Shown: positions 14,072-45,859 of the stretch, piece after piece
How the letters are laid out: each line of letters starts with the position of its first letter
Numbering within the stretch: position 1 is the stretch's first letter
Source of the DNA: Escherichia coli
Lineage (GTDB): Bacteria; Pseudomonadota; Gammaproteobacteria; Enterobacterales; Enterobacteriaceae
Length of the DNA stretch: 64,000 nt
Strand: one strand, 5' to 3'
Assembly: GCF_003334785.1 (NCBI RefSeq)
Contig: NZ_QOWV01000001.1
Made by a program: the position numbers and the translations under genes
The notes under the pieces: generated by a model
Database searches by the model: none
The model's input: only the letters and a program-made list of their open reading frames with translations
Told to the model about the DNA's origin: nothing

Positions 14072-14078
14072 GCAGAAA

Positions 14079-14108
14079 GTCAAAAGCCTCCGACCGGAGG
14101 CTTTTGAC
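14079..14108. terminator. Bidirectional rho-independent terminator between convergent tonB and yciA
   Basis: Perfect palindrome gtcaaaagcctccg/cggaggcttttgac flanked by A/T runs on both strands. Confidence 0.85.
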
Positions 14109-14110
14109 TA

Positions 14111-25482: not shown

Positions 25483-26364
25483 TTGAGCGACACGAATTAT
25501 GCAGTGATTTACGACCTGCACAGCCATACCACAGCTTCCGATGGCTGCCTGACGCCAGAAGCATTGGTGCACCGTGCAGTCGAGATGCGCGTCGGCACCC
25601 TGGCGATCACCGACCATGACACCACAGCTGCAATCGCGCCAGCAAGAGAGGAAATTTCACGTTCGGGACTGGCGTTGAATCTTATTCCCGGCGTGGAAAT
25701 TTCCACGGTCTGGGAAAATCATGAAATTCATATTGTCGGGCTGAATATTGATATTACTCATCCGCTAATGTGTGAGTTCCTCGCGCAGCAGACAGAACGG
25801 CGCAATCAGCGGGCGCAGCTGATTGCCGAAAGACTTGAAAAAGCGCAAATACCTGGGGCGCTGGAAGGCGCACAACGACTGGCGCAGGGCGGCGCAGTGA
25901 CGCGCGGTCATTTTGCGCGTTTCCTTGTTGAGTGCGGCAAAGCCAGTTCAATGGCGGATGTCTTTAAAAAGTATCTGGCGCGCGGGAAAACCGGATACGT
26001 TCCGCCACAGTGGTGTACAATAGAACAAGCTATTGATGTCATTCATCATTCTGGCGGTAAGGCGGTGCTAGCTCATCCTGGGCGGTACAATCTTAGTGCT
26101 AAATGGCTGAAAAGATTGGTTGCGCATTTTGCCGAACACCACGGTGACGCGATGGAAGTCGCGCAGTGCCAGCAATCGCCCAATGAACGTACCCAGCTGG
26201 CGGCCCTTGCGCGTCAGCATCATTTATGGGCATCACAAGGATCTGATTTTCATCAGCCATGCCCGTGGATCGAACTGGGTCGTAAACTCTGGCTGCCCGC
26301 AGGCGTTGAAGGCGTCTGGCAGCTATGGGAACAGCCGCAGAACACCACAGAGAGGGAATTATGA
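25483..26364 (+). CDS. rnm: PHP-domain 5'-3' exoribonuclease RNase AM (TrpH/YciV)
   Basis: 293 aa; PHP metal-binding motifs (DLHSHTTASDG, ITDHD). Confidence 0.9.
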   Translation: MSDTNYAVIYDLHSHTTASDGCLTPEALVHRAVEMRVGTLAITDHDTTAAIAPAREEISRSGLALNLIPGVEISTVWENHEIHIVGLNIDITHPLMCEFLAQQTERRNQRAQLIAERLEKAQIPGALEGAQRLAQGGAVTRGHFARFLVECGKASSMADVFKKYLARGKTGYVPPQWCTIEQAIDVIHHSGGKAVLAHPGRYNLSAKWLKRLVAHFAEHHGDAMEVAQCQQSPNERTQLAALARQHHLWASQGSDFHQPCPWIELGRKLWLPAGVEGVWQLWEQPQNTTEREL

Positions 26365-26981
26365 GCCAGTTTTTTTATATTCATCCTGATAACCCACAGC
26401 AACGTCTGATCAACCAGGCGGTGGAGATCGTGCGTAAAGGCGGGGTGATTGTTTATCCAACTGATTCCGGCTATGCGCTCGGCTGTAAAATTGAAGATAA
26501 AAACGCGATGGAGCGTATTTGTCGTATTCGCCAGCTGCCGGACGGTCACAACTTTACCCTGATGTGTCGCGATCTTTCTGAACTCTCGACCTATTCATTT
26601 GTTGATAACGTTGCGTTTCGTTTAATGAAAAACAACACGCCGGGCAACTATACCTTCATCCTGAAGGGGACGAAGGAAGTGCCACGCCGTCTGTTGCAGG
26701 AAAAACGCAAAACCATCGGTATGCGTGTGCCTTCTAACCCTATCGCTCAGGCGTTACTTGAAGCATTGGGCGAACCGATGCTTTCCACTTCGCTAATGCT
26801 GCCAGGCAGCGAATTTACCGAATCGGACCCGGAAGAAATTAAAGATCGTCTGGAAAAACAGGTAGATTTGATTATTCACGGCGGCTATCTCGGGCAGAAA
26901 CCGACAACGGTTATTGATCTTACCGATGATACGCCGGTCGTGGTGCGTGAAGGCGTAGGTGATGTGAAGCCTTTCTTATAA
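26361..26981 (+). CDS. yciO: YrdC/Sua5-family protein YciO
   Basis: 206 aa from ATG 26361 (MSQFFYIHPDNPQQRL...); ATGA overlap with rnm stop. Confidence 0.9.
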   Translation: MSQFFYIHPDNPQQRLINQAVEIVRKGGVIVYPTDSGYALGCKIEDKNAMERICRIRQLPDGHNFTLMCRDLSELSTYSFVDNVAFRLMKNNTPGNYTFILKGTKEVPRRLLQEKRKTIGMRVPSNPIAQALLEALGEPMLSTSLMLPGSEFTESDPEEIKDRLEKQVDLIIHGGYLGQKPTTVIDLTDDTPVVVREGVGDVKPFL

Positions 26982-27008: not shown

Positions 27009-28904
27009 ATGGCAGGGAAGTTTCGCTGCATTTTGCTGTTGATAGCAGGGCTGTTTGTATCATCTCTAAGTTATGCAGAAAACACGGAGATCCCTTCTTA
27101 TGAAGAAGGGATCTCGCTCTTTGATGTTGAAGCCACTCTGCAACCAGATGGGGTGCTCGACATCAAAGAAAATATTCATTTTCAGGCGCGAAATCAGCAG
27201 ATTAAGCACGGCTTTTATCGTGATTTACCACGACTATGGATGCAGCCTGATGGGGACGCTGCACTGCTGAACTATCATATTGTTGGCGTCACCCGTGATG
27301 GTATTCCTGAACCCTGGCATCTTGACTGGCATATCGGGTTAATGAGTATTGTCGTGGGCGATAAACAACGTTTCTTGCCTCAAGGCGACTATCATTATCA
27401 AATTCATTATCAGGTTAAAAATGCTTTCCTGCGTGAGGGGGATTCTGATCTGCTAATCTGGAACGTGACCGGTAACCACTGGCCGTTTGAAATTTATAAG
27501 ACCCGTTTTTCTCTCCAGTTCTCTAATATTGCGGGTAATCCATTTAGCGAAATCGATCTCTTTACCGGAGAAGAGGGCGACACATATCGTAATGGCCGCA
27601 TCCTTGAGGACGGAAGAATTGAATCCCGCGATCCGTTTTATCGTGAAGATTTCACGGTCCTCTACCGCTGGCCTCACGCTTTACTTAGCAATGCCTCGGC
27701 TCCGCAAACGACGAATATTTTCAGCCATCTTCTTTTACCCTCCACGTCATCGTTGTTAATTTGGTTTCCGTGTCTGTTCCTGGTTTGTGGATGGTTATAT
27801 CTCTGGAAGCGCAGGCCGCAATTTACGCCGGTAGATGTGATTGAAACCGATGTCATTCCGCCAGATTACACGCCCGGCATGTTACGTCTCGATGCGAAGC
27901 TAGTTTACGACGATAAAGGTTTTTGTGCCGATATCGTAAATCTGATTGTGAAAGGAAAAATTCATCTGGAAGATCAGTCTGACAAGAACCAGCAAATCCT
28001 GATTCGTGTTAATGAAGGCGCGACCAGAAATAATGCGGTATTACTGCCCGCAGAGCAGTTATTACTGGAAGCGTTATTTCGTAAAGGCGATAAGGTCGTT
28101 CTTACGGGGAGACGCAACAGAGTCTTACGCAGGGCATTTTTACGGATGCAGAAATTTTATCTGCCGCGTAAAAAGTCTTCGTTTTACCGGTCTGATACTT
28201 TTTTGCAATGGGGTGGACTGGCAATATTGGCGGTCATTCTTTACGGTAACTTGAGTCCTGTAGGCTGGGCAGGAATGAGTCTGGTGGGCGATATGTTTAT
28301 TATGATCTGCTGGATTATTCCTTTTTTATTTTGTTCCCTTGAGCTTTTGTTTGCCCGCGATGATGACAAGCCTTGCGTTAATCGTGTAATCATCACTTTG
28401 TTTTTACCACTGATTTGTTCAGGCGTGGCCTTCTATTCTCTCTACATCAATGTCGGAGATGTATTCTTTTACTGGTATATGCCAGCGGGTTATTTTACCG
28501 CTGTTTGCCTGACCGGTTATCTCACTGGCATGGGGTATATTTTTCTGCCAAAGTTTACCCAAACTGGACAGCAACGTTATGCCCACGGTGAAGCTATCGT
28601 TAACTATCTTGCGCGTAAAGAGGCAGCAACACACAGTGGACGTCGGCGGAAAGGGGAAACACGGAAACTGGATTACGCGTTGCTAGGTTGGGCTATATCG
28701 GCAAATTTGGGGAGGGAATGGGCGTTACGCATTGCCCCTTCGCTTTCTTCGGCGATTCGCGCTCCAGAGATTGCCCGTAACGGCGTTTTATTCTCATTAC
28801 AGACGCACCTAAGTTGCGGGGCCAATACCAGTTTGTTGGGGCGAAGTTATTCCGGTGGTGGTGCTGGCGGCGGCGCGGGTGGCGGAGGCGGTGGTGGCTG
28901 GTAA
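27009..28904 (+). CDS. yciQ: DUF2207 family membrane protein YciQ with Gly-rich C-terminal tail
   Basis: 631 aa; N-terminal signal/TM, several TM helices in C-terminal half, tail SGGGAGGGAGGGGGGGW. Confidence 0.88.
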   Translation: MAGKFRCILLLIAGLFVSSLSYAENTEIPSYEEGISLFDVEATLQPDGVLDIKENIHFQARNQQIKHGFYRDLPRLWMQPDGDAALLNYHIVGVTRDGIPEPWHLDWHIGLMSIVVGDKQRFLPQGDYHYQIHYQVKNAFLREGDSDLLIWNVTGNHWPFEIYKTRFSLQFSNIAGNPFSEIDLFTGEEGDTYRNGRILEDGRIESRDPFYREDFTVLYRWPHALLSNASAPQTTNIFSHLLLPSTSSLLIWFPCLFLVCGWLYLWKRRPQFTPVDVIETDVIPPDYTPGMLRLDAKLVYDDKGFCADIVNLIVKGKIHLEDQSDKNQQILIRVNEGATRNNAVLLPAEQLLLEALFRKGDKVVLTGRRNRVLRRAFLRMQKFYLPRKKSSFYRSDTFLQWGGLAILAVILYGNLSPVGWAGMSLVGDMFIMICWIIPFLFCSLELLFARDDDKPCVNRVIITLFLPLICSGVAFYSLYINVGDVFFYWYMPAGYFTAVCLTGYLTGMGYIFLPKFTQTGQQRYAHGEAIVNYLARKEAATHSGRRRKGETRKLDYALLGWAISANLGREWALRIAPSLSSAIRAPEIARNGVLFSLQTHLSCGANTSLLGRSYSGGGAGGGAGGGGGGGW

Positions 28905-29114
28905 TTAAGCTGATGTTAATCGAAACAAGCTTTAACCATAAAGATAGTGTAGTATGTTGCGCCTCAAAGCCAGGCCGATAAACGTCGAGTCGTTTACTTA
29001 AGGCCTGAAGAGTTCAAACAGACTTTACTATCAGTGAGTCAGATGTAAGTTCTGACTCACTGTTGCACAAAAGCATATCAGACGCCTGGGAAGGCGACAC
29101 CAAAAGGAAGCTCT

Positions 29115-29990
29115 ATGAGCGAAAAGCTACAGAAAGTGCTGGCGCGTGCCGGCCACGGTTCTCGCCGTGAAATCGAATCTATTATTGAAGCCGGTCGTGT
29201 GAGTGTTGATGGCAAAATTGCTAAACTCGGCGATCGTGTTGAAGTTACCCCTGGATTGAAAATCCGTATCGATGGTCACCTGATTTCGGTACGTGAGTCC
29301 GCTGAACAAATTTGTCGCGTTCTGGCCTATTACAAACCGGAAGGTGAGTTGTGTACCCGTAACGATCCGGAAGGACGTCCAACGGTGTTTGACCGTCTGC
29401 CAAAACTGCGTGGCGCACGCTGGATTGCCGTGGGTCGCTTGGACGTTAATACCTGTGGTCTGCTGCTGTTCACCACCGATGGTGAACTGGCAAACCGTTT
29501 AATGCACCCAAGCCGTGAAGTTGAACGTGAATATGCCGTGCGTGTATTTGGTCAGGTTGACGACGCGAAACTGCGTGATTTGAGTCGTGGCGTGCAGTTG
29601 GAAGATGGTCCGGCAGCTTTTAAAACCATCAAGTTCAGCGGCGGCGAAGGGATCAACCAGTGGTACAACGTGACTCTGACCGAAGGCCGTAACCGTGAAG
29701 TTCGTCGTCTGTGGGAAGCGGTTGGTGTGCAGGTGAGCCGCCTGATCCGTGTTCGTTACGGTGATATCCCACTGCCAAAAGGTCTGCCACGCGGTGGCTG
29801 GACGGAGCTGGACCTCGCCCAGACTAACTATCTGCGCGAACTGGTGGAGCTACCGCCAGAAACCAGCTCTAAAGTCGCTGTAGAAAAAGACCGTCGTCGC
29901 ATGAAGGCGAATCAGATTCGTCGTGCGGTGAAACGTCACAGTCAGGTGAGCGGCGGTCGTCGTTCTGGCGGACGTAATAATAACGGTTAA
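29115..29990 (+). CDS. rluB: 23S rRNA pseudouridine(2605) synthase RluB
   Basis: 291 aa; S4 domain [21 protein letters not shown]..., Arg/Gly-rich tail. Confidence 0.95.
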
Positions 29991-29997
29991 TCAAAGT

Positions 29998-30024
29998 ATG
30001 CCGGACGTCATATCCGGCATTTTT
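29998..30024. terminator. Terminator hairpin between convergent rluB and btuR
   Basis: atgccgga/tccggcat inverted repeat followed by TTTT 30021-30024. Confidence 0.75.
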
Positions 30025-30029
30025 ACAGA

Positions 30030-30620
30030 TTAATAATCGATCCCTATCTGCGCTTTTACACCGGCATCAAACGCATGTTTGACGGGGCGTAATTCACTTA
30101 CCGTATCTGCCAGTTCAAGAATATCCCGATGACAACCACGACCCGTGATAATCACCGTCTGTTGATGTGGACGTTCATTTAACGCCTGCACCACTTCTTC
30201 CAGTGGCAAATAGTCATACGCCACCATATACGTCAGTTCATCAAGCAAAACCATATCCAGTGAGGAATCAGCAAGCATCCGCTTTGCATGTTGCCAGACT
30301 TCGCGGCAGGCGGCGGTATCAGACTCGCGGTTTTGTGTATCCCAGGTAAAGCCCGTTGCCATCACCTGAAACTCAACGCCATGTGGCTCCAGCAGATTGC
30401 GTTCGCCATTAGGCCAGGTGCCTTTAATAAACTGCACGACGCCTACTTTTTTTCCGTGACCAACTGCGCGTGTTGCCGTACCAAATGCCGCGGTGGTTTT
30501 GCCTTTTCCATTGCCGGTAAAGACGATGATAATACCGCGTTCATCCTGGGCCTGGGCCACACGAGCATCTACTTTTTCTTTCACTCGCTGCTGACGCTGT
30601 TGGTAGCGTTCATCACTCAT
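30030..30620 (-). CDS. btuR: Cob(I)yrinic acid a,c-diamide (corrinoid) adenosyltransferase
   Basis: 196 aa; P-loop GNGKGKTTAA. Confidence 0.95.
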   Translation of the reverse strand: MSDERYQQRQQRVKEKVDARVAQAQDERGIIIVFTGNGKGKTTAAFGTATRAVGHGKKVGVVQFIKGTWPNGERNLLEPHGVEFQVMATGFTWDTQNRESDTAACREVWQHAKRMLADSSLDMVLLDELTYMVAYDYLPLEEVVQALNERPHQQTVIITGRGCHRDILELADTVSELRPVKHAFDAGVKAQIGIDY

Positions 30621-45591: not shown

Positions 45592-45859
45592 AATACTCTC
45601 TCCTGAATTTATGATTCACGGAAGTAAGCTCTCTATAACTATAATAGCTAAGAATAAGCCTGGTGAAATTATTCCGTGAAATCTGCTCGCGCGCAGGGTT
45701 ATATCACGCAGGTGATAATGACTTCCTGTTATATCGCTGATAATAATTTTATATCTTGAGAGTGTTAATAACAGGTAAATAGTCTTAATTATCAACCAGG
45801 AATCATCTTAGAGCGGATGATTTGCCAAACTGCAAATCATCCGTAGAGAAGGGAAATGG

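Follow-up and report, generated by a model that had tools for sequence, protein, structure and literature searches.

The interval between yciQ and rluB of Escherichia coli carries a perfect hairpin, here called HP2, and the question is whether this structure ends transcription, acts at the DNA level, serves the rluB mRNA or is a relic. We examined it in a stretch of 64,000 nucleotides of E. coli DNA (the window, to which all positions refer unless given as MG1655 coordinates), in which yciO (26325-26981) is followed by yciQ (27009-28904, plus strand), rluB (29115-29990, plus strand) and btuR/cobO on the minus strand. The yciQ product belongs to DUF2207, and rluB encodes the 23S rRNA pseudouridine 2605 synthase. 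Over the yciQ-rluB region the window is 100% identical to E. coli BW25113 and MG1655, and an MG1655 coordinate equals the window coordinate plus 1,297,737. The literature searched on rluB contained no description of its leader, its regulation or an effect of HP2 on its expression.

HP2 occupies 29032-29062 on the plus strand and is composed of two 12-nt arms, 29032-29043 (CAGTGAGTCAGA) and 29051-29062 (TCTGACTCACTG), around a 7-nt loop. The repeat search found the arms complementary at 12 of 12 positions, so that the stem described in the earlier note is exact; six of the 12 base pairs are G-C. Folded alone, the hairpin has an energy of -19.4 kcal/mol, and in the folded leader it is paired in essentially the whole ensemble. 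It begins 127 nt after the yciQ stop (28904), where about 130 had been estimated, and ends 52 nt before the rluB ATG (29115), as previously counted. Allowing up to three mismatches, the HP2 pattern has a single occurrence in the window, and none of 100 shuffled versions contains it. The window has four perfect stems of 12 bp or more with loops of 3-10 nt, whereas 100 dinucleotide shuffles average 0.04, and the whole yciQ-rluB intergenic region folds with a z-score of -4.5. HP2 is more than a chance feature.

Nor is it a copy of a dispersed element. A sensitive blastn search of 3977 E. coli genomes for HP2 as a repeat of the REP/BIME, ERIC/IRU or MITE kind gave a median of one place per genome; with a single copy in the window as well, we rejected a repeat-element identity. 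Scanning 28000-30200 against Rfam 15, with E values up to 10, returned chance-level matches only (E of at least 0.1, far under the gathering scores). Other perfect stems in the window are a 13-bp palindrome inside yciQ about 80 nt past its start codon (gagatcccttctt atg aagaagggatctc, 27087-27115), a stem at 14078-14109 that separates convergent ORFs and is flanked by an A-run and a T-run, as a bidirectional terminator would be, and a stem at 45814-45843 (gcggatgatttgc...gcaaatcatccg) between ORFs, lacking an obvious tail.

Published transcript maps place HP2 inside the rluB message. The supplementary tables of a SMRT-Cappable-seq study list a unit that contains b1269 only, with a transcription start site (TSS) at MG1655 1326700 and an end at 1327761; 37 reads begin at this TSS, and 18 of these finish at the 1327761 terminator (PMC6131387). 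The TSS corresponds to window 28963 and defines an rluB 5' UTR of 152 nt, the start site coming from one data set; the Cappable-seq tables (PMC4782308) hold no matching entry for the rluB start site. The promoter on the plus strand (28950-28963) consists of a -10 element TAGTAT (28950-28955), a GC-rich discriminator and the TSS, and the block GTGTAnnATGTGCGGCCAC upstream of rluB is kept in many genera. Because the TSS lies upstream of both HP2 and a second stem-loop, SL1, both are within the rluB 5' UTR, where the earlier note had proposed to place them. HP2 and SL1 are RNA stem-loops in the 152-nt leader of a monocistronic rluB mRNA.

SL1, the nested stem of the earlier note, spans 28971-29007 on the plus strand, slightly less than the approximate 28966-29010 given there. 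Its basal helix pairs CAGGCC (28971-28976) with GGCCTG (29002-29007; GGCCUG in the RNA), and its apical helix pairs TAAACG (28979-28984; UAAACG) with CGTTTA (28991-28996; CGUUUA). On the transcript SL1 covers +9 to +45, beginning 8 nt from the 5' end, and HP2 covers +70 to +100. In a divergent Escherichia leader type the basal six base pairs of SL1 are kept, one as U.G, and the apical 25 nt are absent; the latter are also indel-variable within E. coli. Spacer 1 (AAGAGUUCAAACAGACUUUACUAU, 29008-29031, plus strand) is conserved in sequence, with no change between the K-12 and L101 types of Escherichia at an 18% difference in 4-fold degenerate sites of rluB, and part of it (AGAGTTACAGAT) recurs 5' of HP2 homologues in other genera. 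Spacer 2 (UUGCACAAAAGCAUAUCA, 29063-29080, plus strand) is predicted to be mostly unpaired, includes an ACA at 29067-29069 and replaces the T-run plus GAAAGTATACC of relatives.

Downstream of spacer 2 stands a third hairpin, SL3 (29081-29099, plus strand), and then the Shine-Dalgarno sequence AAGGAAG with the rluB AUG (29104-29117, plus strand, read from the sequence). The leader is modular, ordered as promoter, SL1, conserved spacer, HP2, spacer, SL3, Shine-Dalgarno and AUG. The span of 28960-29065 given in the earlier note holds SL1 and HP2 and stops just short of SL3. The mean unpaired probability in the folded leader is 0.75 at 29102-29108, which is most of the Shine-Dalgarno sequence, and 0.57 at the AUG, so HP2 is predicted to leave the rluB ribosome-binding site unsequestered. 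Two promoter-like features were observed in the same region. TTTACT-16 nt-TAAGTT runs across the 5' arm and loop of K-12 HP2 and might be a weak internal promoter, and a minus-strand site at 29209-29181 would send antisense transcripts through the leader; the latter lies beside a published bicyclomycin-sensitive, Rho-dependent minus-strand 3' end, antisense in rluB, at MG1655 1326939 (window 29202).

HP2 is also conserved as a structure. HP2 homologues precede rluB in a divergent Escherichia lineage, Kosakonia, Leclercia, Enterobacter spp., Pseudocitrobacter, Shimwellia, Cedecea, Pluralibacter, Klebsiella-like genomes, Erwinia mallotivora and Yersinia, and every one folds as a hairpin at an equal distance from SL3. 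In a plain, unfitted MAFFT alignment of 28 distinct sequences, 84% of the cells of the 12 HP2 pairs form a standard pair, and both sides have changed in nine of the 12. For HP2 and SL3 pairs taken together, pairing falls to 32-47% when the 3' partner is slid by 1-3 columns; the covariation score of the two together is 0.255 compared with 0.138 ± 0.013 in shuffles (none of 500 reaching 0.255), and the slid controls score 0.05-0.09. A covariance model built from the HP2 alignment finds one match per locus, always on the plus strand and directly before rluB. The earlier note had asked for covariation in enterobacterial alignments and had named a TSS downstream of 29062, together with a stem lacking conservation or covariation, as observations against a 5'-UTR element; the TSS lies upstream, and the stem is conserved with compensatory changes. 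Judged from the alignment, pairing rather than sequence is apparently what has been kept across Enterobacterales.

The mismatched cells carry information on the nature of the stem. The wobble cells in the HP2 alignment comprise 43 G.U against 10 A.C, and pairing amounts to 84% when read on the plus strand against 74% on the minus strand. The strand bias of the wobbles favors an RNA stem on the rluB strand over a duplex DNA site, and it tells against the protein-binding palindrome that the earlier note had considered as a further option.

Comparison within Escherichia leads in the same direction. A second leader type, present among the loci L005 and L101-L105, has the hairpin CAGTGGGGCAGG-tgataaa-TCTGCCCCACTG, which differs from K-12 HP2 at five of 24 stem positions and keeps all 12 pairs by means of two double compensatory changes and one A-U to G.U replacement. 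Five random stem substitutions would keep all pairs with P = 0.012. Between these two types there are 4 differences in the 7-nt loop and 2 in the 43 positions of the flanking spacers; 4-fold degenerate sites differ by 18% in rluB and 38% in btuR. In B2-like E. coli, a C-to-T change in HP2 gives a G.U pair. Compensatory changes in palindromes can also come from template-switch mutation without selection. The loci L100-L105 belong to one divergent Escherichia lineage with an identical RluB protein; the K-12-type HP2 is found in L100 and L102, the compensated one in L101 and L103-L105, and yciQ is down to a remnant of about 540 nt in this lineage. The long leader is kept in genomes with an internally deleted yciQ, and therefore seems to belong functionally to rluB.

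Whether HP2 terminates transcription can be read from its tail. In K-12 the stem is followed by TTGCACAA, which has no U-run, and the terminator scan did not flag the site, in line with the missing U-tract pointed out in the earlier note. The interval 1326600-1326899 is without a 3'-end entry in the Term-seq and bicyclomycin tables, an absence from published lists; the same tables place the rluB terminator at 1327761 (PMC7815308). With neither a U-run nor a listed 3' end, HP2 is not a simple terminator; the reservation of the earlier note on this point holds, and published TSS and 3'-end maps, of the kind that it proposed as a check, show a start upstream of the stems and no listed 3' end at HP2. 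The relatives are different. At least four T residues (TTTTT or TTTT) directly follow the stem in 15 of 23 non-Escherichia homologues, one of which is flagged as terminator-like, so that the element looks like a leader terminator, i.e. an attenuator, in most of them. All five Escherichia types have the tail TTGCACAA or CTGCACAA, with no T-run, in agreement with the lack of listed 3' ends, and the Escherichia tail TTGCACAAAAG stands where relatives have TTTTTGAAAG.

The arrangement resembles enterobacterial attenuators such as the pyrBI, pheST and thr leaders in that a stem-loop lies between the mapped TSS (28963) and the ribosome-binding site and AUG (29115), and in the direct T-run of those 15 relatives. 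It differs from them in that E. coli HP2 has neither a U-run nor a mapped 3' end, and in having no conserved leader peptide and no antiterminator pairing. Inspection across the alignments revealed no conserved antiterminator pairing or leader ORF, and we found no sensor or antiterminator of the rluB leader. Three candidates were rejected. In the HP2 loop an AUG-UAA start-stop was considered as an upstream ORF, but the other Escherichia type lacks it. A frame that opens with GUG and runs through SL3 ends on the rluB AUGA in some genera and is broken by 1-nt indels elsewhere; because indels put the frames through SL3 out of register, there is no conserved leader peptide. In several genera the HP2 3' arm (CUCRUUG) could pair with the start-codon region (CAAUGAG), whereas Klebsiella-like genomes, L099 and K-12 do not allow this.

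We consider it about an even call that HP2 is a structurally selected leader hairpin, descended from an attenuator and acting in cis on the rluB mRNA. In Escherichia the T-run would have decayed to UUGCACAAAAG while the HP2 stem became perfect, with no termination there, leaving what we infer to be a stable module that folds on its own and acts in cis on the rluB transcript. Such a module may pause RNA polymerase, may block 5'-to-3' RNase access, and may keep the context of SL3 and the ribosome-binding site fixed and open; HP2 would therefore tune rluB output rather than switch it. The ompA leader, in which a 5' hairpin protects the mRNA from 5'-end-dependent RNase E decay, offers a parallel. 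The rluB 5' UTR is likewise long and structured, with hairpins that leave the ribosome-binding site free and with SL1 located 8 nt from the 5' end, but HP2 itself is internal (+70 to +100) and not 5'-terminal.

The strongest argument for a lesser role is that many genomes do without HP2. Among 5426 complete E. coli genomes, 3977 have yciQ together with the long leader, and 1442 (27%) have a 100-nt yciO-rluB spacer with neither HP2 nor yciQ, the gene and the long leader being present or absent jointly. Homology between the long and short alleles resumes exactly at GACGCCTG (29081). E. albertii, Citrobacter, the Enterobacter cloacae group and Buttiauxella likewise have short leaders that lack HP2. 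Such leaders consist of a conserved TATACT promoter, one 5' hairpin of variable sequence and the unchanged GACGCCTGTGAAGGCGACA, the hairpin occupying the position of SL1. RNAalifold recovers only SL3 from the short leaders because their 5' hairpins diverge too far to be aligned; folded one by one, each short leader forms a hairpin. Since 27% of E. coli and many genera have a normal rluB without HP2, HP2 is dispensable. The earlier note, written from the K-12-like window, overlooked this presence/absence polymorphism of yciQ and the leader.

The history of the slot is partly legible. The short E. coli spacer is nearly identical to that of E. albertii and Citrobacter, and of 30 differences between the long and short allele classes, 23 fall in the first 500 nt of rluB, suggesting an old or imported haplotype. 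In the species survey, which took one genome per species with RluB (80 loci), no close yciQ was found beside rluB outside E. coli. We nevertheless rejected yciQ as an E. coli-specific insertion, for the yciO-rluB slot of Klebsiella-like genomes contains YciQ homologues with 50-56% identity; yciQ is thus an old, patchily kept resident of the slot and not a recent arrival. The 3' end of yciQ (28840-28901) encodes a glycine-rich run (ggtggtggtgctggcggcggc...). Several E. coli matches start only within or after this run (from 28872), and the contig of the divergent Escherichia locus L005 stops there, 189 nt upstream of rluB.

No more than the 3' half of HP2 is left in Pantoea- and Erwinia-type leaders. 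Leaders of the Pantoea, Erwinia and Superficieibacter types account for 19 of the 80 species loci (L033, L045, L054, L055, L066, L078 and others); they have a near-consensus promoter, TTACA-17 nt-TATAAT, in place of the HP2 5' arm and loop, and retain only AACTCATTGATTTTT, i.e. the HP2 3' arm plus the T-run.

These distributions make it conceivable that HP2 is a functionless relic, either a decayed leader terminator or an island-end remnant, lying in a young region or hitch-hiking with the yciQ allele. The loss of the T-run in all Escherichia types, the absence of HP2 next to many normal rluB genes and the lack of a reported 3' end or sRNA interaction at HP2 would be expected of such a relic. 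The evolution of the element is not. The five Escherichia stem substitutions all keep pairing, the single-stranded spacers are far more conserved than the 4-fold sites (2 of 43 positions against 18-38%), the E. coli stem is perfect instead of eroded, and the leader persists where yciQ is deleted. We therefore regard the relic as unlikely, although it is the most serious competitor of a selected cis-acting hairpin.

A different function, autogenous control, is suggested by SL3. This hairpin, GACGCCU-GGGA-AGGCGAC(A) in the window, is capped by a GNRA loop, and 15-17 nt separate it from the AUG. Of 107 loci, ranging from Escherichia to Yersinia, Serratia, Pantoea and Erwinia, 106 share the form GACGCCUG[G/U]GAAGGCGACA; only Tatumella (L065) deviates, by one stem change. 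Its loop is always GGGA or GUGA, the second base being U in 53 and G in 27 of the 80 species loci. SL3 matches no Rfam family. Covariation is uninformative on SL3 since it never varies; its fixed distance to the AUG and its GNRA loop would argue for a role at the RNA level. SL3 is thus a candidate translational operator, and specific control of rluB, if any, is more likely to run through this invariant hairpin than through HP2.

RluB itself could be the ligand, binding HP2 and/or SL3 and repressing the translation or stability of its own mRNA. ThrRS and ribosomal proteins bind their own leaders autogenously, and rluB likewise encodes an RNA-binding enzyme, with an S4 domain (Pfam S4, PseudoU_synth_2) and with the invariant SL3 adjoining the Shine-Dalgarno sequence in every lineage. 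Helix 93 of 23S rRNA, which contains the U2605 substrate, is also a GUGA-capped hairpin with ACGYC in its 5' strand. However, mimicry of helix 93, which we assessed by sequence only, is not significant: 403 of 2000 shuffles score as well as the best match of the leader to 23S 2585-2612 (AACGTCG), and this match sits in the SL1 apex, a part that the other Escherichia type lacks. The candidate pair AACGUCG in SL1 and GUGAGNCAG in HP2 was rejected on this basis, its alignment score being equalled in 20% of shuffles. So was the best 23S match of SL3 itself (TGGGAAGGC, around position 1035), which has an expected count of about 0.2 and is lost in GUGA variants. Unlike the thrS-type operators, moreover, HP2 is not universal, being absent from many rluB leaders, the leader is absent from Rfam 15, and the literature searched holds no binding or feedback data. 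An RluB operator in HP2 and/or SL3 appears rather improbable to us. We hold in the same low esteem the fuller version, in which SL3 would be the operator, HP2 an accessory arm and helix 93 a structural rather than sequence model, with RluB or a ribosome-assembly signal feeding back on rluB. If true, an undescribed cis-regulatory RNA would place the synthesis of an rRNA-modification enzyme under autogenous control.

The geometry of HP2 also invites a DNA-level reading, in which it would be a recombinase core, an att site or another operator tied to islands between yciO and rluB. Tyrosine-recombinase cores have inverted arms of about 11-13 bp around a spacer of 6-8 bp, and HP2, with 12-bp arms and a 7-bp spacer, resembles loxP, dif and att in this respect. 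The yciO-rluB slot holds different insertions in many genera, which marks it as an integration hot spot. In six genera a divergent tyrosine-integrase gene begins about 15 nt upstream of the HP2 homologue; in L038, for example, 2232-3899 on the minus strand encodes a divergent integrase of 555 aa with a weak match to Pfam Phage_integrase. Similar arrangements occur in L019, L025, L026, L049 and L053, and also in L111, and the island genes that follow the integrase include a Tlde1-domain protein, a second integrase and a tape-measure protein. A block ending in GCCATGCTGTGTACCATG that we had taken as an rluB promoter in these six genera is actually the 5' end of the divergent integrase gene.

Several observations stand against such a DNA site and separate HP2 from known cores. 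There is no integrase at the E. coli locus. The wobbles are strongly strand-biased, as is not predicted for duplex DNA, and the HP2 arms covary, with no fixed half-site sequence. No duplicated core was seen in the stretches covered: SL3 as an att core was rejected because no second copy exists within four mismatches in any locus or the window. The island junction lies upstream of HP2 and not in its loop. Viral contigs do not carry the module; a single SL3 match there falls by chance within an ORF of high GC content, and the junction of T-run and GTATACC has no match in them. We judge a DNA-level site to be very unlikely for HP2. One aspect of the relatives may nevertheless be owed to the integrases. 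In the six genera, the T-run plus GTATAC reads on the opposite strand as a TATACT -10 element followed by an A-run, and since the T-run is readable as an integrase promoter, part of its conservation in relatives may serve that minus-strand promoter.

Still less probable is that HP2 is a signal for RNA processing or decay, cut by RNase III, or by MazF or RNase E in the adjacent single strand, and setting a mature 5' end. A MazF-regulon table lists an rluB cut 49 nt before the AUG, which matches the ACA at 29067-29069 immediately 3' of HP2 in the predicted single-stranded spacer 2. MazF, however, cuts many ACA sites, so the rluB cut may be incidental, and relatives have the tail TTTTTGAAAG, with no conserved ACA. 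For RNase III, a stem of 12 bp is a short substrate. Targeting of the leader by sRNA was rejected as well, there being no interaction in the Hfq-CLASH or RIL-seq supplements: rluB is absent from the former and in the RIL-seq study appears in a proteomics table only. Finally, that HP2 terminates yciQ transcription, as a stable stem following yciQ in the same orientation might, is hardly credible, because HP2 is 127 nt away from the yciQ stop and begins after the rluB TSS, has neither a U-run nor a mapped 3' end, and is kept in genomes with yciQ deleted, and because yciQ transcripts already show a bicyclomycin-sensitive, Rho-dependent end within the gene at 1325258 (plus strand, window 27521; PMC7815308).

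The picture that we favor is thus of a selected hairpin acting in cis within a modular, structurally conserved rluB leader, which is found even in E. coli K-12. One arm of this leader, HP2, evolves fast yet keeps its pairing, and a 19-nt hairpin near the ribosome-binding site, SL3, is essentially frozen across the order. The practical value of HP2 would be modest if it only stabilizes or insulates the mRNA, and SL3 is the more interesting lead of the two. The roughly one quarter of E. coli strains that have a short leader, with neither HP2 nor yciQ, constitute a natural experiment, and the rluB leader offers a testable handle on the tuning of a ribosome-biogenesis enzyme.
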